IMG/VR virus record: IMGVR_UViG_2703719369_000026
Origin: a virus
Lineage: Duplodnaviria; Heunggongvirae; Uroviricota; Caudoviricetes
Strand: one strand, 5' to 3'
DNA: 14,832 bases
How positions within the stretch are numbered: position 1 is the first letter of the stretch; every line of letters starts with the position of its first letter. A program made the position numbers and the translations under genes. The notes beneath the pieces were generated by a model. That model ran no database searches, was not told the origin of the DNA, and was given only the letters and a program-made list of their open reading frames with translations. Below, piece by piece: positions 1-14,832 of the stretch.

Positions 1-1002
1 TTACCCTCTATTGTCAAAAGGGTTCAATTCAACAGCAGCCTCTAAATGACCTGGAGCAAAATGCGCATAACGCATAGTCATTTTTATATCGCTATGCCCC
101 AGTATTTTTTGCAACACAAGAATATTTCCACCCCGCATCATAAAATGACTGGCAAACGTGTGACGTAGCACATGAGTTAATTGCCCATCAGGAAGCTCGA
201 TCTTCGCTCTCTTAATTGCAGCGTCAAAAGCCTCATAACATGGTGAAAATAGCGCTCCTCGTTTTTTAGGAAGCATAGCTTGCAATTGAGGTGAAATCGG
301 TACAGTGCGGTTCTTCTTTCCTTTAGTTTTAACAAATGTGATTCGACCGGGCAGTACTTGAGATTGCTTTAATCCTTCTGCTTCACTCCACCGAGCACCA
401 GTCGCAAGCCCAATACGGACAACAACCCCCAAATCTTTATTCCGTGACTCATCACACGCAATCAGAAGGCGTTCAATCTCATCTACATACAGAAACGCCA
501 GTTCCTTTTCTTCCTCACGAAACTTGCGAATACCAGTCAGGGGGTTTTCACCAGACCACTCCCCAAGGCGCTTCAGTTCGGCAAAAACAGCATGTAGATA
601 TGACTGCTCGCGATTAACGGTTGCTTCACTAAGTTTTTTCTTCCCCTTGGGATTCCATTCTCCTGATAGCCTTCTTTCCCGATAAGTAGCAAACATATTT
701 TTGTCAAACTGAGAAGCAAATGGATCTCCCAGCCTGGAACAAATCGCCTCAAGTTTGACTTTGCGCTCTGCACCAGAGGACAAGGTTTTACCGTACATCT
801 CAAACCAACGAGCAATCAACTCAGAAAGACGAGGACCAGAACCATCTTGAAACTCGTCTCCAACTCTACTATTCATTAAACGGCGCTCATAAGAGAGCGC
901 CTCACTTTTTGTCGCAAACTGTTTACGAATGCGTTTTCCCGATGCCCCGTAGGGATAACATTCACAAAGCCATTTACCTGATGGAATCTTACGAACCGAC
1001 AT
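1..1002 (-). CDS. int: Tyrosine-type site-specific integrase (phage integrase family)
   Basis: Complete 333-aa ORF with the stop at window positions 1-3. The C-terminal catalytic region carries the tyrosine-recombinase signature (HVLRHTFASH ... LGHSDIKMTMRYAHF, i.e. the R/H/R/Y residues). Its ATG lies 5 nt downstream of the preceding gene's stop on the same strand, so it is probably co-transcribed. Confidence 0.9.
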   Translation of the reverse strand: MSVRKIPSGKWLCECYPYGASGKRIRKQFATKSEALSYERRLMNSRVGDEFQDGSGPRLSELIARWFEMYGKTLSSGAERKVKLEAICSRLGDPFASQFDKNMFATYRERRLSGEWNPKGKKKLSEATVNREQSYLHAVFAELKRLGEWSGENPLTGIRKFREEEKELAFLYVDEIERLLIACDESRNKDLGVVVRIGLATGARWSEAEGLKQSQVLPGRITFVKTKGKKNRTVPISPQLQAMLPKKRGALFSPCYEAFDAAIKRAKIELPDGQLTHVLRHTFASHFMMRGGNILVLQKILGHSDIKMTMRYAHFAPGHLEAAVELNPFDNRG

Positions 1003-1007
1003 TTTAG

Positions 1008-1355
1008 TTACTTATCACATAAATCAAATGCAGCCTTAGTGACATCCCCCAGACTCTTTTTTAACCCTGGGGCGGCATCATTATCTAGCCAAAATGGATT
1101 ATTGTTATCTAACGGTAACGCACCAAATGTTTTACCTTTTATTCGAGCCAAACCTGTAAGTGCATATAACTTATTATCGTCAAAATTCATCACATAAGGA
1201 TTACCATCAAGACACTGTAATTGAACCTCATCAGTATTAAATGGCCATACCCCATTGAAACTCTCACGTTCAATAGTTTTAAAAGGCATTGCGACGGCGG
1301 AAAAAGAAAACATAGATAAAAAAGTAACTAATAGTTGAACCTTTTTTACTTTCAT
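1008..1355 (-). CDS. Small secreted/periplasmic protein, possibly DUF2511/YebY-like
   Basis: 115 aa with a typical N-terminal signal peptide (MKVKKVQLLVTFLSMFSFSAVA) and two cysteines (QCLDG ... DLCDK) that could form a disulfide. GAGGT ribosome-binding site about 9 nt upstream. The family assignment is from memory of the YebY pattern and is not verified. Confidence 0.55.
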   Translation of the reverse strand: MKVKKVQLLVTFLSMFSFSAVAMPFKTIERESFNGVWPFNTDEVQLQCLDGNPYVMNFDDNKLYALTGLARIKGKTFGALPLDNNNPFWLDNDAAPGLKKSLGDVTKAAFDLCDK

Positions 1356-1384
1356 ATCATTACCTCAATTTAGCTCAAGTAAGA

Positions 1385-2035
1385 TTACAAATTAAAAAAC
1401 GCCCTAGAAATGACACCGCCTACCAAAACCCCTACGCAGATAAAGAATATTATTTCTTTTGGATAAAGTCGGATTAATTCTGAAGCACGAAGTCGGACTT
1501 CTGGTAAGGTCGAACTCTCTATGTGGCTTGATGCCGATTGTTGCTCTAACCACGACAATGCAGACTGTAACTGAGAACGAGTAAGATCGTTTAAACGTCC
1601 TGTACCGAAATTGATATGGCAATACCGCAGAAGTTTTTGTCGAAGTCCACAGTCTTCACTGTTACGTAGTAATAAACTTACAAGAGCCTTACAGGCATCA
1701 TGATCTTTACATCGCTCAAGCATTGCATGCAGAAAACTCTCCGCTGTTTTATATTGATTTACTGTCATATCATCAATACCAGCTACACCAATCTCCGCAT
1801 GTACTTTTTGCCAAATAATAAACGCTTCAGTATTGCTAGCTTCTGCAATAGCAGCAACCAAGCTATTTAGCTCCTTACGCTGAGCCTTAAGCAAAGGGCG
1901 ATCGTCATCATCATTATTCGAAGGGATTGCGATATTGACGGTATGAGAACCATCATATCGCTCTATCTGAATATTCTTTTCGTGAAAATCACGCCCAGCA
2001 ACGCGATTGTTTGAACCGTTTGAGTTGACGGCCAT
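1385..2035 (-). CDS. Hypothetical tail-anchored membrane protein (single C-terminal TM helix)
   Basis: 216 aa. The soluble N-terminal part includes a poly-Asp stretch (NNDDDDR), and the extreme C-terminus is about 20 hydrophobic residues (IIFFICVGVLVGGVISRAFF). Strong GGGAGGTG ribosome-binding site immediately upstream. The N-terminus repeats a motif found at the C-terminus of the upstream HTH protein. Confidence 0.6.
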   Translation of the reverse strand: MAVNSNGSNNRVAGRDFHEKNIQIERYDGSHTVNIAIPSNNDDDDRPLLKAQRKELNSLVAAIAEASNTEAFIIWQKVHAEIGVAGIDDMTVNQYKTAESFLHAMLERCKDHDACKALVSLLLRNSEDCGLRQKLLRYCHINFGTGRLNDLTRSQLQSALSWLEQQSASSHIESSTLPEVRLRASELIRLYPKEIIFFICVGVLVGGVISRAFFNL

Positions 2036-2050
2036 GTCACCTCCCTACTA

Positions 2051-2455
2051 TCACCTACCCTTAGTTTCGTTATAGTCACGACCAGCGATACGGTTATTAC
2101 CACCAGAAATATTTAACTCACGTCCTGATGGCTGAGTTTCCTTTTCACTGATCGCACCTTTTAAAGCCCCAATCACCGCGTTTTTCACATCTAACGAAGC
2201 TGCTCGAAAGCGAGTAATCAATTCCTGCTCATCATCGTTATAAGTTTCAGGTGAGTGAATTCCCAACACAACATACTGAACATCAAGGCCAAAACGAGAC
2301 AGCGCTGCCAAATACGCAGCATCAGGAAAGCTATCTCCTTTCTCATATCTAAGCTGAGTTAGCTTTTTGACTCCACCAATGTCGCTCATGGCAACTTGAC
2401 TAAGTCCCAATCTTTCCCTTTCCTCACGCAACCGCCGACCAATATCATTTTTCAT
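2051..2455 (-). CDS. XRE-family (Cro/CI-type) helix-turn-helix transcriptional regulator, candidate immunity repressor
   Basis: 134 aa. The N-terminal 65 residues fit the HTH_XRE pattern (IGRRLREERERLGLSQVAMSDIGGVKKLTQLRYEKG). It is first in the leftward operon and transcribed divergently from the rightward early genes, matching the position of P2 C or 186 cI. Confidence 0.8.
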   Translation of the reverse strand: MKNDIGRRLREERERLGLSQVAMSDIGGVKKLTQLRYEKGDSFPDAAYLAALSRFGLDVQYVVLGIHSPETYNDDEQELITRFRAASLDVKNAVIGALKGAISEKETQPSGRELNISGGNNRIAGRDYNETKGR

Positions 2456-2464
2456 ACAAAAACC

Positions 2465-2488
2465 TTGACAGGTATCTTTTTTGATACC
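2465..2488. promoter_or_regulatory. Candidate operator/promoter: TTGACA hexamer followed by a perfect inverted repeat GGTATC-TTTTTT-GATACC
   Basis: Read directly from the sequence: TTGACA at 2465-2470, GGTATC at 2471-2476, a T6 spacer, GATACC at 2483-2488. It lies in the 75-bp divergent region between the XRE repressor gene and the rightward genes. The -10 element and strand assignment are not resolved. Confidence 0.4.
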
Positions 2489-2530
2489 AAAATGATTTCA
2501 CGAGCTATTAGATGATCACAATATACCACT

Positions 2531-2737
2531 ATGAAACAAGTTCTTCACGATACCAGATCACGCATTCCGCGTAACACCGCCACAGGTCCAAGACTGGCAC
2601 TTCGGCTGTCCCTCGAGGAGCGAGCCGTCATTGATGAAATGGCAGCTAAAGAACAACGCTCATCCTCTAACATGGCGCGCATGATCTCCCTTCGCGGCCT
2701 AGAGCTAACCCAGAAAGAACAAAACAAATCTTCCTGA
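2531..2737 (+). CDS. Putative ribbon-helix-helix DNA-binding protein
   Basis: 68 aa with an RHH-like beta-strand plus two helices (RLALRLSLEERAVIDEMAAKEQRSSSNMARMI). No clear Shine-Dalgarno sequence, so it may be leaderless or weakly translated. Confidence 0.4.
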   Translation: MKQVLHDTRSRIPRNTATGPRLALRLSLEERAVIDEMAAKEQRSSSNMARMISLRGLELTQKEQNKSS

Positions 2738-2753
2738 TCAGGAGGCTAGTGGG

Positions 2754-2957
2754 ATGTCAGGTATAACCATCAATATCAATGTGAATGCCCCCTATGTATC
2801 CCTGCAGAAATATGCAGAGATAACAGGTATCCCTCTTAATACATGCAAAAAGATGTTGGCTGACGGTCGAATTATTATCCGCCCCAAACGCGCCAAAATG
2901 GAAAAGCCTGAAGTAAACCTTGTGGCGATGTTAAAAGACGCTTTGGCTAACAGCTAA
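2754..2957 (+). CDS. Putative Cox/Apl/Xis-like small HTH protein (excisionase or early regulator)
   Basis: 67 aa. AGGAGG ribosome-binding site 8 nt upstream. The motif YVSLQKYAEITGIPLNTCKKMLADGRI resembles the excisionase-type HTH. Its position, first clear rightward gene opposite the repressor, matches cox/apl. Confidence 0.5.
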   Translation: MSGITININVNAPYVSLQKYAEITGIPLNTCKKMLADGRIIIRPKRAKMEKPEVNLVAMLKDALANS

Positions 2958-2978
2958 AACAATGAACAGAGCACCATC

Positions 2979-3329
2979 ATGAAAAAAAACGCTAATAATC
3001 CATACTCCAAATTTCGTAATGGCGTAGAACGCCATGTACACCACGTCGCTACCAGTGCATCACGTAGTAACAGTCGCTATAACCTGAACGAGACGCATGC
3101 AACACCGGATGGCCACGCTGTAAAACAAATCGGCGAACATGCCTGGCTGATTGAGAAAGCTGGAATCGTGGTCCACAAATGCCCACGCAATCCGTTTACC
3201 GGGAACCGCATTTTTGCATTGAACTGCGGCGACAATCACTTCGGGCAGGATTTCACATTATACGAAGCACTTCGCACGGTTGATCGTCTGCTTCGCGGGC
3301 AAAGTTTTATTAAACAGGCTGATTTATAA
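2979..3329 (+). CDS. Hypothetical early-region protein
   Basis: 116-aa ORF in the rightward gene chain; no recognisable domain. Confidence 0.45.
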   Translation: MKKNANNPYSKFRNGVERHVHHVATSASRSNSRYNLNETHATPDGHAVKQIGEHAWLIEKAGIVVHKCPRNPFTGNRIFALNCGDNHFGQDFTLYEALRTVDRLLRGQSFIKQADL

Positions 3330-3339
3330 CAGGTGCTTT

Positions 3340-3618
3340 ATGACCAAAGAGCATGCACAAGGTGTATTTATCCGTTTTATTGATTTTCGCGGTGAACTGT
3401 TATTACGCGCATCAGCCATTGACGGAATTGTTCCATCCGAAAAAAACGCAGCTACTTACGTTTATCTGAACGGTACGCGCCTGACTGTGGAGCTTCCGTA
3501 CCAGACCGTACGAGAAATCATTAGCGAAGCTGAAAAGGCTCGTCAGGTTAATGGCGATGAACCCTATATCGAAATTATTTGTATGGATTCAGAAGCTGAA
3601 ATTCAGAAAGCAGATTAA
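3340..3618 (+). CDS. Hypothetical protein
   Basis: 92 aa starting at the ATG at 3340, which has an AGGTG ribosome-binding site. The longer 3280 start in the ORF track would overlap the previous gene by about 50 nt. Confidence 0.5.
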   Translation: MTKEHAQGVFIRFIDFRGELLLRASAIDGIVPSEKNAATYVYLNGTRLTVELPYQTVREIISEAEKARQVNGDEPYIEIICMDSEAEIQKAD

Positions 3619-3629
3619 AGGGCGTTGCG

Positions 3630-3872
3630 ATGGGCAAAGAATATAAAACTCTCATTAACAAAGCACCTGAACGATTTTATTTTCGCTTAAGTGCATCAGG
3701 CGCTCATGCTGAACGTGCAGCCCGTGACTCATTGACCAGGGCAATCCGGAGTTTGTATGACGTTGCTTTTTACGCTGATGATCTGGATGCACTTAACGAA
3801 CTTTCCGAGCTGATCTGTGCCGCAGAATGCGGGGAACACATTGAACCATATAAGCTGGGGAATATCGCATGA
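3630..3872 (+). CDS. Hypothetical protein
   Basis: 80-aa ORF. Its stop overlaps the next start (ATGA at 3869-3872). Confidence 0.5.
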   Translation: MGKEYKTLINKAPERFYFRLSASGAHAERAARDSLTRAIRSLYDVAFYADDLDALNELSELICAAECGEHIEPYKLGNIA

Positions 3873-3982
3873 GTATATTTATCTCATGGCTTGTTCTGAT
3901 TATTTCGGTGGCCTGCGCCATTGGGATTATGCGAATTATTCATTCAGTAAAAAAGATTGAACGCTTTTTCACTGACAAATAA
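3869..3982 (+). CDS. Putative 37-aa single-TM membrane peptide
   Basis: Not in the ORF track because it is under 60 aa. Translated by hand as MSIFISWLVLIISVACAIGIMRIIHSVKKIERFFTDK: a hydrophobic helix followed by a basic tail. Its start is coupled to the upstream stop (ATGA). Confidence 0.35.
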   Translation: MSIFISWLVLIISVACAIGIMRIIHSVKKIERFFTDK

Positions 3983-4074
3983 CAGCTTAAACAGAACACC
4001 AGATTAAACCCGAAAACCTGAAAACTATCCGCATTCGCGGAGGTATTCGCACACGTAAATAACGGAGATATAAA

Positions 4075-4491
4075 ATGAACGCAAAAGAAAAAAATATTAT
4101 CAATACATTAAAAATAGTGTCAGCAGAGCAAGACAAGCTGTCCAGGGCAGCCCAGAAAGATAATCAACATATGGCAGCGCTTTACGCACTGACCATCGCA
4201 ATAGCCACCCCTGAAGCAGCCAAAGTTATTGAGGAACAGAGCAAAGAAATCGACACTCTTAAAACACAGTCAACAGTTGCAGCCATGAATCCGTCCAGCA
4301 TTGGACGCTGCATTTATATTCTTGGTTCAGCAATGATGCTGCAATACACCATTATTGCCGAACTGCACGGCAAATACCTGATAACGCCTTACCACACAAA
4401 AGAGTCAGAGCTTCTGACAAATCTCCGCCTGATAGAACGCTCTCAAGCTGTATTCATTGATGACGCGCAACGTGCCGTATTTAACGCATAG
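4075..4491 (+). CDS. Hypothetical protein
   Basis: 138 aa with a GGAG ribosome-binding site; no recognisable domain. Confidence 0.5.
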   Translation: MNAKEKNIINTLKIVSAEQDKLSRAAQKDNQHMAALYALTIAIATPEAAKVIEEQSKEIDTLKTQSTVAAMNPSSIGRCIYILGSAMMLQYTIIAELHGKYLITPYHTKESELLTNLRLIERSQAVFIDDAQRAVFNA

Positions 4492-4514
4492 GGTTACTGG
4501 ACAAAGGGGGCGCA

Positions 4515-4718
4515 ATGGCAATTAAGCATTTTCCCGTCGTTCGCTTTACCTCCAGAGGGCGCGAATACGAGGTCGACGAACGCCTGATTACCACTATCGA
4601 CAAACATCGTTCGGAAAAGGATGCACACCACATCTACCTCACTGACGGCACTTACTTCTGCGCCACCAACGTGGCGCGAGTAAATCTTATCCGACAGGTA
4701 CAGGAGCCACGCAGATGA
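4515..4718 (+). CDS. Hypothetical small protein
   Basis: 67 aa with a strong AAAGGGGG ribosome-binding site. First gene of a three-gene translationally coupled chain. Confidence 0.5.
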   Translation: MAIKHFPVVRFTSRGREYEVDERLITTIDKHRSEKDAHHIYLTDGTYFCATNVARVNLIRQVQEPRR

Positions 4719-4981
4719 CCATTCTGGACTACATCGCTACTCATCCGGGGTGTAGCGGCGGAGAGATCGCCGCAGCACTGAATACCCCAACCACAGCCAT
4801 TAATGCTGAGTTACGCCGACTTTGGCGCGGCGGCTTAGTCATCAGAACAAACCGCAGCACAGGTGGTCGCGCTCGCAAAACAGGAGGCCAGGCTTCTTAC
4901 CACGTAAACCCGATGCCGTTCGGGTGTAGCAATCCACTTACTCACATGTTTAACCAGCTACTGAAGGAAGCCAGAGCATGA
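4715..4981 (+). CDS. Putative winged-helix DNA-binding protein
   Basis: 88 aa. AGGAG ribosome-binding site and ATGA overlap with the upstream gene. The N-terminal segment (DYIATHPGCSGGEIAAALNTPTTAINAELRRLWRGGLV) resembles a wHTH. Confidence 0.5.
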   Translation: MTILDYIATHPGCSGGEIAAALNTPTTAINAELRRLWRGGLVIRTNRSTGGRARKTGGQASYHVNPMPFGCSNPLTHMFNQLLKEARA

Positions 4982-5277
4982 GCACCATCAACCACCAGAA
5001 GCTACGCGAACTGGCATTTGCCCTGCAACGAATGGCAACGCCTCAAAAATTACTGGCATTTCGCGCAATGCTCTCGCCGTCTGCTGTGCTGGCACTGCTG
5101 GATCAGCTGGAGCACGCCAGAACCACGGCTCCTGCCATTCGCCTCACGCTCCATCATGAAATCGCTGATTTCTGCGCAACGCTGGGGGCACCTGGCGAAC
5201 CGGAAACGCCGGAAGCAATGCAGCAAGAGCTGCTGCAACGCATCGATAACGTTTTTGATTTTTTTCTGAACCAGTAA
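4978..5277 (+). CDS. Hypothetical protein
   Basis: 99-aa, helix-rich ORF with an ATGA overlap to the upstream gene. Confidence 0.5.
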   Translation: MSTINHQKLRELAFALQRMATPQKLLAFRAMLSPSAVLALLDQLEHARTTAPAIRLTLHHEIADFCATLGAPGEPETPEAMQQELLQRIDNVFDFFLNQ

Positions 5278-5399
5278 GAAACCAGAACATGCACACACAA
5301 AAAAACCGCTTGCCATGCCGCAATCGGTCAGGTTACATTTCCGCTGCACCTCATAAAACGGGTGCCGGGATTCTCAACCCGATACAGAGCAAAGCGCAT

Positions 5400-5420
5400 A
5401 ACCGCGCTAGCGGTTTTTTT
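5400..5420 (+). terminator. Candidate intrinsic terminator (hairpin plus T-run)
   Basis: AACCGC-GCTA-GCGGTT stem-loop at 5400-5415 followed by TTTTTTT through 5420. It lies about 125 nt downstream of the 4978-5277 gene. Confidence 0.45.
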
Positions 5421-5599
5421 GTGCGTACTGTATTGCCACGTCTTTTTCGCGTCAGAATTATGGCGGGGCGTACGGGGCCGACTTCGGTCGGGCCGGATTC
5501 TTTGCTCTCCGGTGTTGAGAACCCTGTACGTCTCGCCACCCCGAGATTCTCAACTCTGGATGGTGAGTTATTTCTATCACCGAGCAAAGAGGCCACACC

Positions 5600-5830
5600 A
5601 TGGCAGACCGCAAACAGCACCGCGCTATCGCGGAGCGTCGTCACATCCAGACTGAAATCAACCGCAGACTTTCCCGCGCATCACGCGTCGCGCAAATCAT
5701 GCACATCAATATGCTGCATGAGCGCAGCCACGCACTATCAAACATTTATTCCGCCTCTGTTTTCAGCTATCTGGCGGATGATCTGCACGAGTTTCAACAG
5801 CTCATCCAGCAGCAAAACAAACTCCATTAA
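5600..5830 (+). CDS. Hypothetical small basic protein
   Basis: 76 aa with an AAAGAGG ribosome-binding site 7 nt upstream. It is preferred over the overlapping 205-aa ORF at 5289..5906, which crosses the hairpin structures. Confidence 0.4.
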   Translation: MADRKQHRAIAERRHIQTEINRRLSRASRVAQIMHINMLHERSHALSNIYSASVFSYLADDLHEFQQLIQQQNKLH

Positions 5831-5902
5831 TTCCTGTTCCGGGCCTTTCCTGCACCTTGCGGCGGGAGGCCTTCGCACATCTGTAACAAGAGGATTGCCG
5901 CA

Positions 5903-6268
5903 ATGATTCTCGCCAACGACTTTCTTGAATACCTGCTCAACACAGAACGTGATCTTGCCGCTCGCGTGCGTGATCGTTATGACATGTACCTGAAATCCCT
6001 GCCTGTACCGCAGCTCGCTGACGGAAAGATTGTTATTGATGGTCGCTACATGATTGACAGCCACGAGGGAAATTACAGGCTTTACCGCATTGAAGGTGGC
6101 ACCCCGTCCGTTATTGGCATTTACCAGCGCCCATCCTCTGCAATCGTCGATGTGATTGCCGACAGCATCCGCATCACACATCGCCATGCCGACACAGAAG
6201 ACACCGTGCTGGAAATTCAGCGGCTGGCTACAGCCTGCCGCGACACCCTGAATGGCATGACGAAGTAA
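5903..6268 (+). CDS. Hypothetical protein immediately upstream of the replication initiator
   Basis: 121 aa with an AGAGGA ribosome-binding site. It sits where P2 carries gene B, but no similarity to B was recognised. Confidence 0.5.
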   Translation: MILANDFLEYLLNTERDLAARVRDRYDMYLKSLPVPQLADGKIVIDGRYMIDSHEGNYRLYRIEGGTPSVIGIYQRPSSAIVDVIADSIRITHRHADTEDTVLEIQRLATACRDTLNGMTK

Positions 6269-6274
6269 ATCACT

Positions 6275-9097
6275 ATGACGGCAGAGTACATCAGGGACTG
6301 GCAACAACCGCGCCACGCAGTGGGGCGTGAAGGAACGGGGATCCCCGCTCCTGAATCCGCGCTTTCCTCCTGGCTGGATGCCTACCGGGTAGAGAACGAG
6401 CGCCGCCAGGAAATGGCTGATGCGGCGTTCTCCGCAACGCCGCTGGGCAACCTGATTAATAAAAGCCTGGACGCACAGGAAAAACAGGACAAAACCATCA
6501 CACTGGCAGGAGACGCCAGAAAACAGGCACGCGGTGCGGTGGATGAAGCCATGGCCTCGCTGCGCCTGCTGCCGTCCTATCTGCGCGATCCGCTTATTCG
6601 CCACCTCTCCTTCCTGCGCAAAAAACAGGAAGCCGATCGTCAGAAAGGCAAAAAGAGCTGGCAGGCTGAACGCTACGCGCGCGGAAACCTGCGCAAAATA
6701 TTCGAACGTCTGGAGCGCACCGATCACCGCTGGCTGACACAGGGTTATCGCTCCCTTGCCGGACGCGAACGCCTGGACGATTTGCTTTACCTGCCGCAGC
6801 TCAACAAACACCAGATACAGACGCTGGCCACCATGACGGCGGCGATGTTCAGCAGCACCTTCGAAAAACTCTGCGATGGCTTTGGCGCGACCGATGGCGA
6901 ACTGACCATGGATGTAACGCTGAAGGCGTATCAGATGCTGGCCCGCATGGCGTTACACCTGCACGCCATGCCTCCACATTATGACGCACTGACAACAGAC
7001 AAAGACCGGAGGAACGAACCGGACACGGAGCTGCTGCCGGGCGCAATCCTTCGCCTGACCTGTGCGGAATGGTGGAAACGCAAACTGTGGCTGTTACGTT
7101 GCGAGTGGAGAGAAGAACAACTCCGCGCCGCCTGTCTGGTTTCCAGAAAAACATCGCCCTATCTGAGCCAGGACGCGTTAAGCGAGTTTCGCGCACAGCG
7201 CGAGAAAACACGCGATTTCCTGAAAAGTTTCATGCTGGAAAACGAAGACGGGTTCACGATTGATCTCGAGACAGTGTATTACGCGGGAGTAAGTAACCCG
7301 GTTCACCGTAAGGCAGAAATGATGGCCACCATGAAGGGGCTGGAACTTCTGGCCGAAGCCCGTGGCGACAAAGCGGTGTTTCTGACTGTCACCTGCCCGT
7401 CAAAATACCACGCTACAACAGAGAACGGTCATCCGAATCCCAAATGGAACGGGGCCACCATGCGCGACTCCAGCGATTACCTGGTTAACACGTTTTTTGC
7501 GGCGGTCCGCAAGAAACTGAACCGCGACGGCCTGCGCTGGTATGGCATCCGCACGGTGGAGCCTCACCATGACGGCACCGTGCACTGGCATATGATGGTC
7601 TTTGCTCATCCGGAAGAAATCGACACCATTGTGTCCCACACCCGCGATATTGCCATTCAGGAAGATCGTCACGAGCTGGGCGATGATATTACTCCGCGCT
7701 TTAAGGCGGAGTATGTCGACGGCTCAAAAGGCACGCCAACCAGCTACATCGCCACCTACATCGGAAAAAACCTGGACAGCCGCGCCGTGGATGGCATCGA
7801 CCCGAAAACAGGCAAACCACGCGTTGACCACGAAACCGGAAAATCAATGACCGAGAGCGTGGAACGCGCCATTGGCTGGGCGCGCCTTCACCGGGTCCGC
7901 CAGTTCCAGTTCTTTGGCATCCCCTCCCGTCAGGTGTGGCGTGAACTGCGTCGCCTTGCCAGCCAGATGGCACGCAACCCGGAAGGCCCGCAACGGCTGA
8001 AGGATGACGCAATGGATGCGGTTCTTGCTGCCGCTGATGCCGGATGTTTTACCACCTACATTGAGAAACAGGGAGGCGTACTTGTTCCACGCAAGGACTA
8101 CCTGATTCGCACCGCCTACGACCTCGCAGATGAGCTGAACGATTACGGCGAACAGAGCGTACAGATTTACGGGATCTGGTCACCACTCATCGGGGAATCC
8201 TCCCGTGTGTGCACGCACCCGGATAACTGGAAGCTGGTAAGACGTAAACCGGGAGTAGAAGACAGCGCCCGCGAAAATGGTTTTGACCTTCAGGGCGGCC
8301 CTGCCGCCCCTTGGACTCGTGGCAATAACTGTCCCCGTGTACAGGAAACGGACAACAACGGGACAGAACAGCCGGAAGAACGGCCAGCACCGTGGCCGCA
8401 GCTTCCTGACGGCGTTGACGTGAACGAATGGATGCGCTCACTGAAACGGCACGAACGCCGGGCGCTGATGCGTTCGCTTCGTGACAAACAGGCAAAAAAC
8501 AGCAGTGATGAAATGCAGAGCTGGACACAGAGCCGCAAACAGCAGCGGCCTTTGCCTGATAACCACGAATTACTCGCTAAAGAATGGCGGGAGTCTGCTG
8601 AATCTCTCGGCCTGCATATCGGTGAACAACAGATGCAGCACCTGTTACGGGGCGGCAGTCTGTACGTTGACGGCAGCATCATTGCACCGCAGGGATTTGA
8701 AATTGTACGCAAACCGGATACCCGCCCGGACAGCCGAATCACGCAGCTCTGGCAGCGCCTGAGCCGTAATCATGGCGTAAGCAGCACGGAGATCCGCCAT
8801 AACCCGGTCGCCAGCTATCTGGCACAGCTGGGGGCATCAGACCCTGAAGCCGCCGCACGCCTGGCATCCACACTTCAGCAGGACCAGAACACCATGAAAA
8901 CACCCGTTACCGTGCTTTCTGACATGCTGCGCGCCATCCGCGACGCAGAGCACGCACAGAGAATCAGTGAAACCACTGAACGCGCCAGCCGCAAAGCAGA
9001 CCTGCTGCGGGGTGGCCTGACCAGTGGAAACAAAAAACAGACAGAAACGGGACTCACAAATCCCGTAAATGAGCAAAAAACGCGCCGCGATATATGA
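6275..9097 (+). CDS. Rolling-circle replication initiator/endonuclease, phiX174/P2 gpA superfamily
   Basis: 940 aa. HUH motif VHWHMMVF encoded at about 7580-7603, and a paired-tyrosine active site SYIATYIGK (YxxxY) with the tyrosine codons at 7745-7747 and 7757-7759. It is about 180 aa longer at the C-terminus than the roughly 760-aa P2 A protein. Confidence 0.88.
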   Translation: MTAEYIRDWQQPRHAVGREGTGIPAPESALSSWLDAYRVENERRQEMADAAFSATPLGNLINKSLDAQEKQDKTITLAGDARKQARGAVDEAMASLRLLPSYLRDPLIRHLSFLRKKQEADRQKGKKSWQAERYARGNLRKIFERLERTDHRWLTQGYRSLAGRERLDDLLYLPQLNKHQIQTLATMTAAMFSSTFEKLCDGFGATDGELTMDVTLKAYQMLARMALHLHAMPPHYDALTTDKDRRNEPDTELLPGAILRLTCAEWWKRKLWLLRCEWREEQLRAACLVSRKTSPYLSQDALSEFRAQREKTRDFLKSFMLENEDGFTIDLETVYYAGVSNPVHRKAEMMATMKGLELLAEARGDKAVFLTVTCPSKYHATTENGHPNPKWNGATMRDSSDYLVNTFFAAVRKKLNRDGLRWYGIRTVEPHHDGTVHWHMMVFAHPEEIDTIVSHTRDIAIQEDRHELGDDITPRFKAEYVDGSKGTPTSYIATYIGKNLDSRAVDGIDPKTGKPRVDHETGKSMTESVERAIGWARLHRVRQFQFFGIPSRQVWRELRRLASQMARNPEGPQRLKDDAMDAVLAAADAGCFTTYIEKQGGVLVPRKDYLIRTAYDLADELNDYGEQSVQIYGIWSPLIGESSRVCTHPDNWKLVRRKPGVEDSARENGFDLQGGPAAPWTRGNNCPRVQETDNNGTEQPEERPAPWPQLPDGVDVNEWMRSLKRHERRALMRSLRDKQAKNSSDEMQSWTQSRKQQRPLPDNHELLAKEWRESAESLGLHIGEQQMQHLLRGGSLYVDGSIIAPQGFEIVRKPDTRPDSRITQLWQRLSRNHGVSSTEIRHNPVASYLAQLGASDPEAAARLASTLQQDQNTMKTPVTVLSDMLRAIRDAEHAQRISETTERASRKADLLRGGLTSGNKKQTETGLTNPVNEQKTRRDI

Positions 9098-9173
9098 AGC
9101 GCGCACAAAACAGGCAAAAGCGGGATTTAAAAATCCTGTAACCGATTAATTAATCAACATAAGGAAAAGCGAC

Positions 9174-10133
9174 ATGAAAATTTGTATCGACGACGGCTCC
9201 ACCAACATCAAGCTGGCATGGACTGAGAACGGCGAACGCCGCAACGCCATCAGCCCGAACAGCTTCAAGTCGGAATGGTCTGCGCCATTCGGTGGCACGC
9301 AGCCCGCGAACTACATGCTTGATGGCGTGCGCTATGGTTTTGATCCGGTCAGCGATCGCTTTGTCCAGACGACCGACACGCAATACCAGTACAGCGATGT
9401 GAATGTAATTGCCATTCATCACGCGCTGGTCAAATCAGGCATCACACCACAGGAAGTGGATGTGGTTGTCACCCTGCCACTGAGCGAGTATTTCGATACA
9501 AACGCACAGCCGGACATGGCCAACATCAACCGCAAAAAAGCGAACGTCATGCGCCCGGTGGAGTACCAGAACGGCGAAGCATTCACTATCCGTAACGTAC
9601 GGGTTATGCCTGAATCCATTCCTGCTGGCTTTAAGGCACTGGCTGACATGAGTCCGTTTGAATCCCTGCTGATTGTGGATTTGGGCGGAACCACGCTGGA
9701 TGTGGCAAAGGTTCAGGGGCAACTGGCAGGTATCAGCCAGGTGTTTTGCGATCCACACGTAGGCGTTTCTCTGATGGCCGATGCCGTACTGTCGGTGATG
9801 GCCACTAACGGTATGCGCACCAGTCACCACATCGCCAATACCATTATCGAACATCGCCATGATGAAGCCTGGCTGCGCCAGCACATCCACAATGACGCGC
9901 ATTACGCCAGCCTGATGGCGGTTATTCGTGAAAAGGAAGAAACACTGAAACAACGCGTGATCCGCGCGCTGGCGGTTTTTTCGGGTTACGGGCGGGTGAT
10001 GGTTGTCGGTGGCGGGGCGGAGATTGTGGCAACCGCTATCCGCGAAGCCTGCGGAGTTAATGCGACTTTCATCGCGGACGGGGTGCCACAGTTTGCTCTG
10101 GTTAATGGGTTGTACGCAATGAACAAGGAGTAA
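9174..10133 (+). CDS. parM: ParM/StbA actin-like segregation ATPase (type II partition)
   Basis: 319 aa, alignable by eye along its full length to R1 ParM. Actin-fold motifs are present: IDDGSTNIKL (phosphate-1), VDLGGTTLD (phosphate-2) and VVGGGAE. AAGGA ribosome-binding site. Confidence 0.92.
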   Translation: MKICIDDGSTNIKLAWTENGERRNAISPNSFKSEWSAPFGGTQPANYMLDGVRYGFDPVSDRFVQTTDTQYQYSDVNVIAIHHALVKSGITPQEVDVVVTLPLSEYFDTNAQPDMANINRKKANVMRPVEYQNGEAFTIRNVRVMPESIPAGFKALADMSPFESLLIVDLGGTTLDVAKVQGQLAGISQVFCDPHVGVSLMADAVLSVMATNGMRTSHHIANTIIEHRHDEAWLRQHIHNDAHYASLMAVIREKEETLKQRVIRALAVFSGYGRVMVVGGGAEIVATAIREACGVNATFIADGVPQFALVNGLYAMNKE

Positions 10134-10137
10134 ACCA

Positions 10138-10452
10138 ATGACGACACCAACCAGACGGATAAGTTTCTATCTGAAGCCCGCCGCCGTCAAGAGTGAACAG
10201 GAGGCGTGCAATTACCTCGATAGCCTGCCAGCCTCCGAACGCAGCCGCGCGCAACGCGCGGCCTTTCTGGCTGGGCTAGCACTCATAAAGCGCAACCCAG
10301 CATTTGCCTACTGGATGGCCGAATGGCCAGAGGACAACCTCCCCTTCAATACCGTTAGCATCAAGGAAACATACCAGGCTAATCAGCCTAGCGGAGTTGA
10401 ATGCAATTTTTATAAAATAAAAAAGAATATTCAGACCTTATTCCCAGAATAA
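10138..10452 (+). CDS. parR: ParR/StbB centromere-binding adaptor
   Basis: 104 aa starting 4 nt after the parM stop. The N-terminal RHH region (ISFYLKPAAV ... LDSLPASERSRAQRAAFLAGLAL) matches the R1 ParR pattern. Confidence 0.85.
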   Translation: MTTPTRRISFYLKPAAVKSEQEACNYLDSLPASERSRAQRAAFLAGLALIKRNPAFAYWMAEWPEDNLPFNTVSIKETYQANQPSGVECNFYKIKKNIQTLFPE

Positions 10453-10471
10453 TCTGATAATTGTATGTGAA

Positions 10472-10926
<455 letters not shown>

Positions 10927-10979
10927 TAAAGTTATGTTCCTGACGTATGTATTCGTCCCGCAGGAATCAACCAACTGAT

Positions 10980-11369
10980 TTATCTGAATTTATCATGCCC
11001 CTCAACTCTGATTTTATTCATCTTGTTTACCGAATCGGGTATATCTGATAACTGTCCCGATAAGACTTTTTGTTTCGCCAGCATAATCTCTTTTTCAAGC
11101 TTTTGAAGTTCTTTTATATAGTCATTCTTCCCTTCTTCATCAGCCGGTGAAATGCTCTCAGGAAGACGCTTCATTGACTCATCTACAGCATCATCCATTC
11201 TGTCAAGAGCTTCAAGAAGCTCCTTTTTATCCATTGATGACTGAAGTACACTCATATTCCTTGCAAGAACTTGCATGCTTTCATCAAGTTCTTCTGCCAC
11301 TGTAATCCCCCCACACAAAAAATATAATGCCATACCACAGCTGATTATAACTTTATTGCTTTTCTGCAT
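10980..11369 (-). CDS. cybC: Cytochrome b562 family protein (periplasmic, four-helix-bundle haem protein)
   Basis: 129 aa with a signal peptide. A Met near the mature N-terminus (AEELDESMQVL) and a C-terminal His (EGHDKFR) parallel the Met and His haem ligands of E. coli cytochrome b562. AAGGAG ribosome-binding site. Lies 43 nt downstream of the catalase-peroxidase gene. Confidence 0.75.
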   Translation of the reverse strand: MQKSNKVIISCGMALYFLCGGITVAEELDESMQVLARNMSVLQSSMDKKELLEALDRMDDAVDESMKRLPESISPADEEGKNDYIKELQKLEKEIMLAKQKVLSGQLSDIPDSVNKMNKIRVEGHDKFR

Positions 11370-11381
11370 AATTTCTCCTTC

Positions 11382-11404
11382 ATGAGGGAGGTGCCCTCCC
11401 TCAT
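11382..11404 (-). other. Intercistronic stem-loop between the catalase-peroxidase and cytochrome b562 genes
   Basis: Perfect 9-10 bp inverted repeat (A)TGAGGGAGG-tgc-CCTCCCTCA(T). It is not followed by a U-run on the coding (minus) strand, so it is unlikely to be an efficient intrinsic terminator. Confidence 0.5.
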
Positions 11405-11412
11405 CAGTTTTA

Positions 11413-13638
<2,226 letters not shown>

Positions 13639-13799
13639 TTAAGGGAAATTCGCATGTTGTATACAAAAGTCAACTTTATTGATGCAACAGGATATACCTA
13701 TTGCTGGGATAGATACTACAGACAAAAAATACTAAGGGGTTCCAAGCCGCAACTGACGATGCCGTTGAGTTCTGCGCAGACCTGAATATTCCCTTCTTT

Positions 13800-13985
13800 G
13801 TGGATGTCAGAAACAAAAAGCTGGTCTTCTGGTTTGTACGTGTTGATGACGAAGGGTATCCTGAAATAGCCCGCTGCACGGAGCGGGAGTTTGCGACCAT
13901 TCTTGCCGGTATCAGCGCCGGCGGCATGTACTGCCCGGAGTGTGGCACGGTTCACTGGCCGGACGGAGTTCCCCCGCCCTTCTGA
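13800..13985 (+). CDS. Hypothetical small ORF, possibly an IS91-family accessory ORF remnant
   Basis: 61 aa from a GTG start. The open frame extends upstream to 13713 without an ATG. Its stop overlaps the ATG of the IS91-like transposase (TGATG). Confidence 0.3.
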   Translation: MDVRNKKLVFWFVRVDDEGYPEIARCTEREFATILAGISAGGMYCPECGTVHWPDGVPPPF

Positions 13986-14420
13986 TGCTTCCCCGTTTTG
14001 CCGACATTTTTCAGCAGGGAAACCGCTGGCTTAACTGGCTGGAGAAACAACCGGAAGGTTCAGTGCGTCCGGTAGTCATTGAGTCTGTGACAAAAATCAT
14101 GGCCTGCGGGACCACGCTGATGGGGTACACACAGTGGTGCTGTTCATCTCCGGACTGCAGCCACATAAAAAAGGTCTGCTTCCGGTGTAAAAGTCGCTCC
14201 TGCCCGCACTGCGGAGTGAAGGCTGGCGCACAGTGGATACAGTATCTGCTGAGTCTGGTTCCCGACTGTCCGTGGCAGCATATTGTGTTCACACTTCCCT
14301 GCCAGTACTGGTCCCTGGTGTTCCACAACCGGTGGTTACTGGCAGAGATGAGCCGCATTGCTGCGGATGTGATACAGGAAATCTGCCGCCAGGCAGATGT
14401 GCGACTACGAACTCGAACCA
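13985..14420 (+). pseudogene. IS91-family (rolling-circle HUH-Y2) transposase, N-terminal fragment only
   Basis: N-terminal zinc-binding region typical of IS91 TnpA (VRPVVIESVTKIMACGT ... CSHIKKVCFRCKSRSCPHCG). The frame then gives way to IS3-family orfB sequence near 14420, so the catalytic HUH/Y2 domain is absent. Confidence 0.7.
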
Positions 14421-14424
14421 CAAT

Positions 14425-14832
14425 CTGCCAGTTGCGCCAAATCTGCTGAACCAGACGTTCGCTCCTGCAGCACCAAATCAGGTCTGGGTGGCGGACCTGA
14501 CGTATGTTGCCACACAGGAGGGATGGTTGTACCTCGCTGGCATCAAAGATGTTTATACGTGCGAAATTGTCGGCTACGCCATGGGAGAGCGCATGACAAA
14601 AGAGCTGACAGGTAAAGCCCTGTTTATGGCGCTCAGGAGCCAGCGCCCACCTGCCGGGCTAATCCACCACTCTGATCGAGGTTCACAGTACTGCGCATAC
14701 GATTACCGGGTCATACAGGAGCAGTTTGGTCTGAAAACATCAATGTCGCGTAAAGGTAACTGTTACGACAACGCTCCGATGGAAAGCTTCTGGGGAACGC
14801 TGAAAAATGAGAGCCTGAGCCACTATCGTTTT
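14425..14832 (+). pseudogene. IS3-family transposase orfB internal fragment, continuing beyond the window
   Basis: Hand translation in frame 1 gives NQVWVADLTYVATQEGWLYLAGIKDVY ... LIHHSDRGSQYCAYDY ... CYDNAPMESFWGTLKNE, a DDE integrase core. There is no upstream orfA or inverted repeat. The sequence differs from the IS629-like copy at 10484-10926. Confidence 0.8.

Follow-up and report, generated by a model that had tools for sequence, protein, structure and literature searches.

The name 'IsrK-C4 immunity system' has already been given to RNA modules of P4-like and lambdoid prophages (Barquist et al., PMC3632133). In the Gifsy-1 prophage of Salmonella, IsrK activates translation of a read-through mRNA in trans and is needed for prophage induction; Hfq binding and trans activation of downstream open reading frames (ORFs) are known from this IsrK only (PMC4825925). 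RNA-dependent termination has been described as the mechanism of P4 (PMC4825925), and the P4 epsilon protein derepresses P2 through binding the P2 repressor (PMC2669165). In the GenBank record of phage P1, promoter P1c4 is followed by a1 and b1, labelled as putative target sites of C4, and then by c4 RNA, a2, b2, and icd; a2 and b2 are annotated as target sites for repression of icd/ant translation, and b2 is placed 10 nucleotides (nt) upstream of icd. An Rfam-based list for strain EDL933 includes isrK (twice) and C4 (PMC5331693). We found no description of such a module in P2-like phages in the literature. Here we analyze a 14 832-nt stretch of DNA from a member of the Caudoviricetes (IMG/VR record IMGVR_UViG_2703719369_000026), referred to as the window, and in particular its gap at 5278–5599, which separates an ORF of 99 amino acids (aa) (4978–5277; weak Ead/Ea22 similarity) from an ORF of 76 aa (5600–5830).

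Positions 1–10924 of the window are 100% identical to Escherichia coli O157:H7 chromosomes, where they belong to a P2-like prophage adjoining yecA that, going by its description, is taken to be Sp13 of strain Sakai. A first-pass annotation made from the letters alone had described the gap as structured and non-coding, and had suggested a small RNA gene, an array of regulator-binding repeats controlling the replication operon, or both. We propose to read the gap as an IsrK-C4 RNA immunity module of the P1 immI/P4 type acting by the mechanism set out below, a reading to which we assign a probability of about 0.82. Its family membership, its folds, the positions of its sites, the three-way covariation of these sites, and the homology of the first gene downstream are established here. 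A vaguely described structured gap is thereby replaced by a precise, testable regulatory circuit in a P2-like prophage of O157:H7.

RNA families and recognition sites in the gap

The C4 antisense RNA family (RF01695) matches 5456–5543 on the plus strand with 78.5 bits against a gathering score of 45, covering model positions 1–87 of 87. The minimum-free-energy fold of this segment equals the Rfam consensus (−47.6 kcal/mol, z = −4.9), and the UUCG hairpin that had been picked out in the first-pass annotation is present as a part of this larger fold (Table 1). Upstream of it, isrK (RF01394) matches 5346–5420 on the same strand with 63 bits against a gathering score of 50, over model positions 1–77 of 77 (Rfam scan). 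The predicted fold of two hairpins and a terminator agrees with the Rfam model and is more stable than shuffled sequences (z = −2.7). The terminator-like hairpin reported earlier closes this element, with its stem and T-run where the annotation had placed them, and the suggested small RNA gene ending there is borne out by the family match together with a promoter-like site just upstream. The c4-a1b1 family (RF03163) reaches 15.9 bits against a threshold of 46.7 at 5333–5385, overlapping the first two IsrK hairpins, while the corresponding element of phage P1 scores 51 bits. Judged by its sequence, the upstream element of the window does the same job as c4-a1b1, as the carrier of a1 and b1, but is a member of the IsrK sequence family. 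No tRNA-like gene was found.

Two triads of short complementary sequences connect these RNAs with the mRNA downstream. The motif GATTCTCAAC stands at 5369–5378 and 5545–5554 and its one-mismatch reverse complement at 5514–5523, as had been reported, and it has no further match at ≤1 mismatch within the 14.8-kb window. The count of this 10-mer alone is not significant (3 observed against 1.02 expected; 16/200 shuffles reach 3). We nevertheless regard the triad as non-random because its three copies are confined to 186 nt, a second triad accompanies them, the folds are stable, and the three-way covariation recurs in relatives. The second triad, which the first-pass annotation overlooked, has the same geometry: (A)GAGCAAAG at 5386–5394 and 5582–5590, and the complement CTTTGCTCT at 5499–5508 (in short form, GAGCAAAG for b1 and b2 and CUUUGCUC for b′). 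The 8-mer GAGCAAAG occurs 5 times in the window against 0.72 expected, a count that 0/200 shuffles reach, and b1 and b′ form an inverted repeat of 9 nt with 100% complementarity. From complementarity, a′ (5514–5521) is predicted to pair with a2 (5547–5554), and b′ (5499–5507) with b2 (5582–5590). A second copy of both C4 targets, a1 and b1, lies upstream of C4, as in known C4 loci. On this sequence evidence the motif first noticed is the a1/a′/a2 triad of a P1 immI-type locus, and its inverted copy is an antisense element rather than one half of an operator.

Table 1. Positions of the RNA elements, recognition sites, and reading frames of the module and the genes that follow it (window coordinates).
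Feature	Position	Strand	Description
Inverted repeat, 21 nt (15 nt perfect)	arms 5293–5313, 5406–5426		Right arm is the 3′ half plus U-tract of the IsrK terminator
Promoter-like site	5310–5339	+	TTGCCA, 18-nt spacer, TACATT; shortly before the IsrK match begins (5346)
IsrK-type RNA	5346–5420	+	Hairpin 1, 5346–5365; hairpin 2, 5366–5381; spacer with b1; intrinsic terminator 5400–5415 and U-tail to 5420
a1	5371–5378	+	UUCUCAAC; loop of IsrK hairpin 2; complementary to a′ of C4
b1	5386–5394	+	AGAGCAAAG; single-stranded part of IsrK; complementary to the b′ loop of C4
C4 RNA	5456–5543	+	Helix 1, 5461–5477 with 5522–5538 (17 bp); UUCG hairpin 5478–5491; hairpin 3, 5492–5513; 8-nt unpaired linker
Candidate leader frame	5460–5906	+	AUG in AAUUAUGG (conserved C4 5′ end); 148 codons; runs across a2/b2, then over the epsilon-like gene in the +1 frame
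b′	5499–5508	+	UCUUUGCUCU; loop of C4 hairpin 3; complementary to b1 and b2
a′	5514–5521	+	GUUGAGAA; unpaired linker of C4; middle, inverted copy of the first-noticed motif
a2	5547–5554	+	UUCUCAAC; mRNA, 4 nt past the C4 match; third copy of the first-noticed motif
b2	5582–5590	+	GAGCAAAGA; overlaps the Shine-Dalgarno sequence AAAGAGG (5586–5592) of the epsilon-like ORF, start codon 5600
Epsilon-like gene	5600–5830	+	76 aa; homologue of the P4 epsilon derepression protein, putative antirepressor
orf121	5903–6268	+	Function unassigned
Replication gene A (gpA)	6275–9097	+	PF05840, E = 2.4e-131

Covariation of the sites in related phages

Thirteen loci were retrieved for comparison (P88, 569R5, Shae_phiSM, six Stx/lambdoid phages, ST64B, N15, P4, and P1). 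Rfam models place IsrK, or c4-a1b1, in tandem before C4 in 13/13 of them, with P1 represented by c4-a1b1 plus C4. The tandem of P4 falls between the ORF88 and epsilon genes, an interval that we take to be the published seqA/CI RNA immunity region. Across 14 phages the geometry is narrow: a1 starts at IsrK position 26/27, a2 starts 1–8 nt and b2 30–39 nt past C4, and b1 is found at IsrK position 40–42 wherever a b1 match of at least 7 nt is present. The site sequences themselves vary among these phages yet complement each phage's own C4; the six sites change together, so that this complementarity is kept. Off-diagonal matches occur where phages share a type, as do the window and N15, both with a′ GUUGAGAA. 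The covariation of the hairpins in relatives, which the first-pass annotation had put forward as a check, is found in both RNAs. In the C4 helices, 97.4% of cells are paired and 16/28 pairs show compensatory changes (14 phages), a level that 0/500 shuffles reach and that slid controls also fall far below. In IsrK, compensatory changes affect 6/15 pairs (13 phages).

Variation within the P88-like group is concentrated in the sites. Four P88-like phages align without gaps over 373 columns, of which 46/72 are variable inside the six sites against 21/282 outside them (22-fold odds ratio, Fisher p = 3.6e-23). Scanning IMG/VR yielded 53 unique epsilon-linked, P88-like modules with 6 a-types, 13 b-types, and 19 combinations of the two; contiguous complementarity of at least 7 nt is present at a1 in 98%, a2 in 100%, b1 in 91%, and b2 in 87% of them. 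Thirty lambdoid modules likewise comprise 9 a-types, 15 b-types, and 17 combinations; the a and b sites reassort independently. Such naturally reassorted sites are a resource for the specificity of two-site RNA–RNA recognition. More broadly, among 93 unique C4 loci (from Pseudomonas, Burkholderiales, Xanthomonadales, and others) a complement of the C4 loop of at least 8 nt lies downstream in 52% and upstream in 43%, against ~2% for complements in other loci, the control for this set. The repeats had been suggested to be regulatory recognition sites, and this is supported, in the form of predicted RNA pairing triads whose positions are kept in the 14 phages and the 53 P88-like relatives. One IMG/VR locus (L138) carries a non-cognate a1 (UUCUCAC in IsrK against a′ UGUGGAA) together with cognate b1, a2, and b2, which suggests a recombinant.

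Direct and inverted DNA copies would covary as well, so the three-way covariation is also compatible with the repeats being operators for a DNA-binding protein encoded nearby and controlling the promoter of the replication operon. Small helix-turn-helix (HTH) proteins are indeed encoded in the vicinity (a MarR-like protein of 88 aa at 4715–4981 and an HTH protein of 134 aa at 2051–2455). Because covariation is expected of operators too, discriminating evidence was sought. The middle copies fall precisely within the unpaired segments (loop and linker) of a C4 RNA with covarying helices, and the outer copies lie in the loop and single strand of IsrK and on the ribosome-binding site; homologous sites in P1/P7, P4, and N15 have reportedly been shown to be RNA targets. 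The window and 569R5 encode neighboring proteins that are 95–100% identical (MarR-like 99%, orf67b 100%, epsilon 97%, orf121 99%, gpA 98%), and despite this every a and b site differs between the two. In one common lambdoid b-type (L151 and relatives), a single position differs between the b′ loop and b2; it makes a G-U wobble (hand alignment), which fits RNA pairing and not DNA identity. Outside the gap the window, its immunity switch region included, contains no copy of the repeat motif. Compensatory mutations in Gifsy-1 support RNA–RNA pairing (PMC4825925). The proposal that nearby small DNA-binding proteins bind the repeats is not supported: the middle copy lies in the C4 linker, and the outer copies are laid out like the RNA targets of P1. 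A protein-binding array, which neither recurs at the immunity switch nor tracks the neighboring proteins, unchanged while the sites change completely, appears extremely improbable.

Leader reading frame and the Ash family

A candidate leader frame opens within the conserved 5′ end of C4 and closes on an ATGA overlap with the start codon of orf121 (5903–5906), an ending shared by 44/53 unique relatives. Among 59 unique AUG-to-start regions this frame is open in 56, compared with 16 and 5 for the other two frames, and in the hypervariable islands it meets stops in 3/102 cases against 45/102 and 59/102. The +1 frame over epsilon is open in 44/44 distinct genes where 8–32% would be expected, an observation that is suggestive only, because the genes represent just 2–5 independent lineages with few risky codon contexts. 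The Gifsy-1 counterpart, orf45, has its first start codon at the same C4-like 5′ end, is translated, overlaps the antirepressor gene by AUGA, and is needed for translation of that gene; its nucleotide sequence is conserved and its amino-acid sequence is not (PMC4825925).

These frames raise the question of whether the gap encodes a protein, namely an Ash-family product from the 205-codon ORF 5289–5906 or from the part of it that begins at the AUG at 5460, with the RNA features being incidental. Besides the depletion of stops and the translated orf45, the ORF 5289–5906 is open in all four P88-like phages, and the Ash profile PF10554 (107 residues) is matched over its whole length by translations of the module in P4, Stx2a_1447, ST64B, and ASU11 (46–84 bits against a threshold of 26). 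The match of the window frame (5334–5613) to this profile, Phage_ASH, is weak, at 18.6 bits below the same Pfam threshold. At the islands the encoded residues are radically altered although the RNAs remain complementary; the authors of the Gifsy-1 study report conservation of nucleotides but not of amino acids. P88 has no ATG at the position of the start codon at 5289, its frame beginning SFSQ, and the region is interrupted by stops in P1, N15, and VT2phi_272. The immunity factor of P4, formerly named the cI protein, was reportedly shown to be RNA. We therefore consider a protein-coding gap improbable. The whole-profile matches instead suggest that the Ash family is the translated IsrK-C4 locus: PF10554 appears to describe a locus of non-coding RNA, or no more than a leader peptide without a conserved amino-acid sequence. 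The likeliest reading is that the act of translating the leader frame, through coupling, is what matters and not the peptide, which adds to the RNA model without replacing it.

The IsrK and C4 RNAs are unannotated in the P88, 569R5, and O157 RefSeq records, and among the matches listed only the Stx2-converting phage F004 carries a 'C4 antisense RNA' feature under the match. P88 (locus L121, 5012–5200) has a minus-strand hypothetical protein over the module and 569R5 (L127, 5950–6567) a hypothetical protein of 205 aa, while antirepressor or 'transcriptional regulator' ORFs of Stx2a_1447 (L131, 1141–2292) and ST64B (L123, 1647–2804) are extended upstream across IsrK and C4. These protein ORFs over the RNA module are probably spurious. 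The minus strand also holds a 357-codon ORF (5738–6811) that lies opposite the epsilon-like gene, orf121, and the 5′ portion of gpA. GC-rich coding sequence probably accounts for it, and it indicates that long spurious ORFs do occur in this region.

Promoter-like site and long-range inverted repeat

The promoter-like site upstream of IsrK (Table 1) has counterparts at the same place in P88-like, lambdoid, N15, P4, and P1 loci, where −35/−10-like pairs are found and the P1 record names promoter P1c4. An A7 tract at 5299–5305, just upstream of the −35 hexamer, could serve as an UP element, and the start of IsrK transcription is placed near 5346 by inference. A terminator-like site stands in the expected place at the IsrK of the window and recurs in relatives. 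Control of this promoter by the SOS response or by a repressor was looked for as well. No LexA-like box was found at ≤1 mismatch in 5200–5650; TACTGTAT at ~5426–5433 is by eye a perfect LexA half-site without a partner and is not conserved in Shae_phiSM. No k-mer of at least 8 nt is common to the gap and the immunity switch region, and no C1-type operator was found at the promoter. A second promoter-like site (TTGCCA, 17 nt, AATTAT; 5433–5461) was rejected as probably spurious, since its −10 element is the conserved C4 leader and its −35 element is not conserved (TCGCCA in P88 and Shae).

The inverted repeat that spans the IsrK region could add a further layer of control. The block that is conserved in P88-like phages begins at its left arm, and when 5286–5428 is folded a long-range helix is predicted to replace the terminator (−52.9 kcal/mol, z = −5.0). 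In this model, the repeat could act as an antiterminator, such that transcripts coming from upstream would read through the IsrK terminator. Two observations speak against this idea: the repeat is confined to the P88-like group, and covariation does not support it, the terminator having undergone no matching change in variants with A5 in place of A7. The left arm was also considered as a leftward terminator, but shuffled sequences fold just as stably (z = 0.05), and its A-tract may simply be the UP element of the promoter.

Proposed mechanism and regulated genes

The first gene behind the module encodes a homologue of P4 epsilon. Its product matches the Pfam family PF25738 'Derepression' (E = 1.1e-7, 31.9 bits against 27), is 32% identical to P4 epsilon over 50 aa (BLASTP E = 6e-9), is labelled 'derepression protein' in RefSeq, and has no similarity to P1 Icd. 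Behind it come orf121, gene A, and ParM/StbB-type partition genes. The claim that the gap controls the replication operon is accordingly modified: the first regulated gene would be the epsilon-like derepression gene and not a replication gene, while orf121 and gene A do follow on the same strand, a conserved open frame links the C4 region to orf121 through the ATGA overlap, and no terminator-like site was found on the plus strand from 5497 to 6000, where the scan ended.

For C4 processing, the translational block, polarity, and competition by IsrK, we draw on the P1, P4, N15, and Gifsy-1 literature. Transcripts would start near 5346 from the sigma-70-type promoter at 5310–5339, and most would end at the terminator at 5400–5420, giving an IsrK-type small RNA of ~75 nt with a1 in a loop and b1 single-stranded. 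Transcripts that read through would carry C4 (5456–5543), which would probably be cut out, like that of P1, as an RNA of ~79 nt. C4 RNAs are typically released from a longer transcript, with RNase P acting at the 5′ end, as stable RNAs of ~77 nt. P1 C4 has 77 nt, and on this model the mature form in the window probably spans ~5462–5540; the sequence context of processing is conserved (AAUUAU|GG at the 5′ end of C4 and CCACC at its 3′ end), and the P1 record gives the mature ends. The read-through mRNA would contain a2 and b2 directly behind C4, with b2 on the ribosome-binding site of epsilon. Pairing of the C4 linker (a′) and loop (b′) with a2 and b2, in cis or in trans, would block translation of epsilon, and this block would probably lower expression of orf121 and gpA by polarity, keeping the prophage quiet. 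IsrK, with the same two sites, would compete for C4 as an anti-antisense RNA, and an increase in the ratio of IsrK to C4 would therefore activate the operon. The a and b sequences of 8–9 nt would be the determinants of specificity, and because they differ between near-identical phages, such phages would be heteroimmune at this switch.

Predicted duplex energies are in line with this specificity. The C4 core of the window pairs at −32.6 kcal/mol with its own mRNA and at −32.5 kcal/mol with its own IsrK, compared with −16 to −26 kcal/mol for non-cognate phage targets. Several points weigh against the proposed mechanism. Cofolding of full-length C4 with its targets yields a net gain of ~0 (−0.2 and −1.4 kcal/mol); loop–loop kissing contacts lie outside standard cofolding, which accounts for this result and is the reason why local duplex energies of exposed segments were used. 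A count meant to tell RNA pairing from DNA repeats gave 165 G-U and 132 A-C mismatches next to maximal seeds, in flanks dominated by conserved context. The transcription start, the efficiency of the terminator, and the processing of C4 are all extrapolated. The sequence fits equally well a translational block by C4, as in the P1 model, a termination of transcription, as in the P4 and N15 models, or both. Translational repression with polarity is said to be the mechanism of P1, in work by Citron and Schuster and by Biere et al. Likewise, seqA of P4 reportedly takes part in C4-dependent termination, i.e. it acts for repression. As upstream sites act for repression in P4 but IsrK activates in Gifsy-1, IsrK in the window may act in either direction.

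Prophage context

Sequence identity over the gap is ~89% with the P88 group (Xuanwuvirus) of P2-like phages and ~70% with regions of Stx, ST64B, and N15 phages. Sp13 carries a P4 epsilon-like gene and a repressor without a peptidase or cleavage motif and was described as 'remarkably' inducible by mitomycin C, by a mechanism then unexplained; this inducibility was tentatively ascribed to the epsilon-like gene (Asadulghani et al., PMC2669165). The module is a likely control element of that gene.

Whether the module still regulates anything can be asked, because the Sp13 of O157 Sakai is missing most morphogenetic genes (PMC2669165) and the prophage sequence in the window stops after the partition genes at an insertion sequence (IS) fragment. 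It could be an inactive relic in a defective prophage. Against this, all six sites are intact and mutually complementary, and so are the epsilon, orf121, and gpA ORFs. The region is at least 99% identical in 341 E. coli records, and the 100% matches among those listed are all of O157:H7 or O157 type. Moreover, Sp13 excises and replicates, with ~30-fold induction by mitomycin C (PMC2669165). We judge a relic to be quite improbable.

A wider scheme for prophages of the P88/Sp13 type can be sketched from these elements, although we put it forward tentatively and regard it as possible rather than probable. The module would have two outputs, one being C4-gated epsilon and the other the replication genes reached via the leader frame that ends on orf121. 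Its reassorting a and b sites (6 × 13 types) would form a combinatorial RNA barcode of heteroimmunity, and cross-talk with the IsrK and C4 of co-resident Stx prophages might account for the mitomycin C response of Sp13 in the absence of an SOS-sensitive repressor.

The immunity region of the prophage (window 1–2737) is unlike that of P88 and 569R5, while the remaining early region is closely related. It encodes, on the minus strand, the 134-aa HTH protein (2051–2455) and a 216-aa protein without an assigned function (1385–2035), at a place where P88 and 569R5 carry short P2 C-type repressors, and it has no tblastn match in the P88, 569R5, and Shae_phiSM loci.

The window itself is composite over 10450–14832, the prophage sequence ending after the partition genes at the IS fragment. 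Positions 10900–14832 are 100% identical to pO157-type E. coli plasmids with katP (cytochrome b562 and katP). The junction between chromosome and plasmid lies near 10751–10924, within an IS3-family fragment (ALIL frameshift pseudoknot, 10751–10867, minus strand). In no complete E. coli genome was at least 80% of the window found in one place. Either the assembly joined the two parts across an IS copy, or they form an IS-mediated cointegrate.

Comparison with known systems

One close counterpart is the immI operon of P1/P7 (c4 antisense RNA, icd, ant1/ant2). Like the window, it presents in order and with similar spacing a promoter, a1, b1, a terminator-like hairpin, C4, a2, b2 on a ribosome-binding site, and the first ORF; the C4 fold is the same down to the 3′ CCACC, and the cargo has an antirepressor function. 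The two loci differ in all four recognition sequences and in their first genes, which are Icd in P1 and the unrelated P4-epsilon-like gene in the window. The upstream element scores as c4-a1b1 in P1 and as isrK in the window. Read by eye, the frame that starts at the C4 AUG meets a stop in the b′ loop of P1, whereas it stays open for 148 codons in the window. Unlike P1, the window promoter shows no C1-type operator or other repressor site.

Another is the immunity region of satellite phage P4 (seqA, and CI RNA with seqB and seqC), located upstream of epsilon and the alpha replication gene. Its seqA region scores as isrK and its CI RNA as C4, the epsilon proteins are homologous, and its left operon parallels the window with isrK and C4 matches, epsilon, and then a replication gene (alpha in P4). 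The spacer between IsrK and C4 measures 107 nt in P4 and 35 nt in the window. Epsilon is the first ORF in the window but not in P4, where it lies beyond another ORF that comes after CI, and the replication protein is the alpha primase in P4 and a P2-type gpA in the window. The published mechanism of P4 is reportedly RNA-dependent premature termination.

The IsrK/orf45 (STnc1160)/anrP locus of Gifsy-1 shares with the window the IsrK family, the design based on terminator read-through, the antirepressor cargo, the leader ORF beginning at an AUG at the C4-like 5′ end, and the AUGA overlap with a downstream gene. Its orf45 has 45 codons and ends on the antirepressor start, whereas the frame of the window is ~148 codons long (~100 longer), overlaps the antirepressor gene in the +1 register, and closes at orf121; the host phage is lambdoid for Gifsy-1 and P2-like for the window. 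The antirepressor locus of N15, whose RNA is called CA RNA in the N15 literature, likewise has IsrK and C4 in tandem above the Rfam thresholds. Its a′ (GUUGAGAA) and its a-sites (UUCUCAAC) are identical to those of the window, whereas its b sites and downstream genes differ. The gap thus belongs to a known kind of system and does not constitute a new one; what it adds is a previously uncharacterized member with a different cargo.

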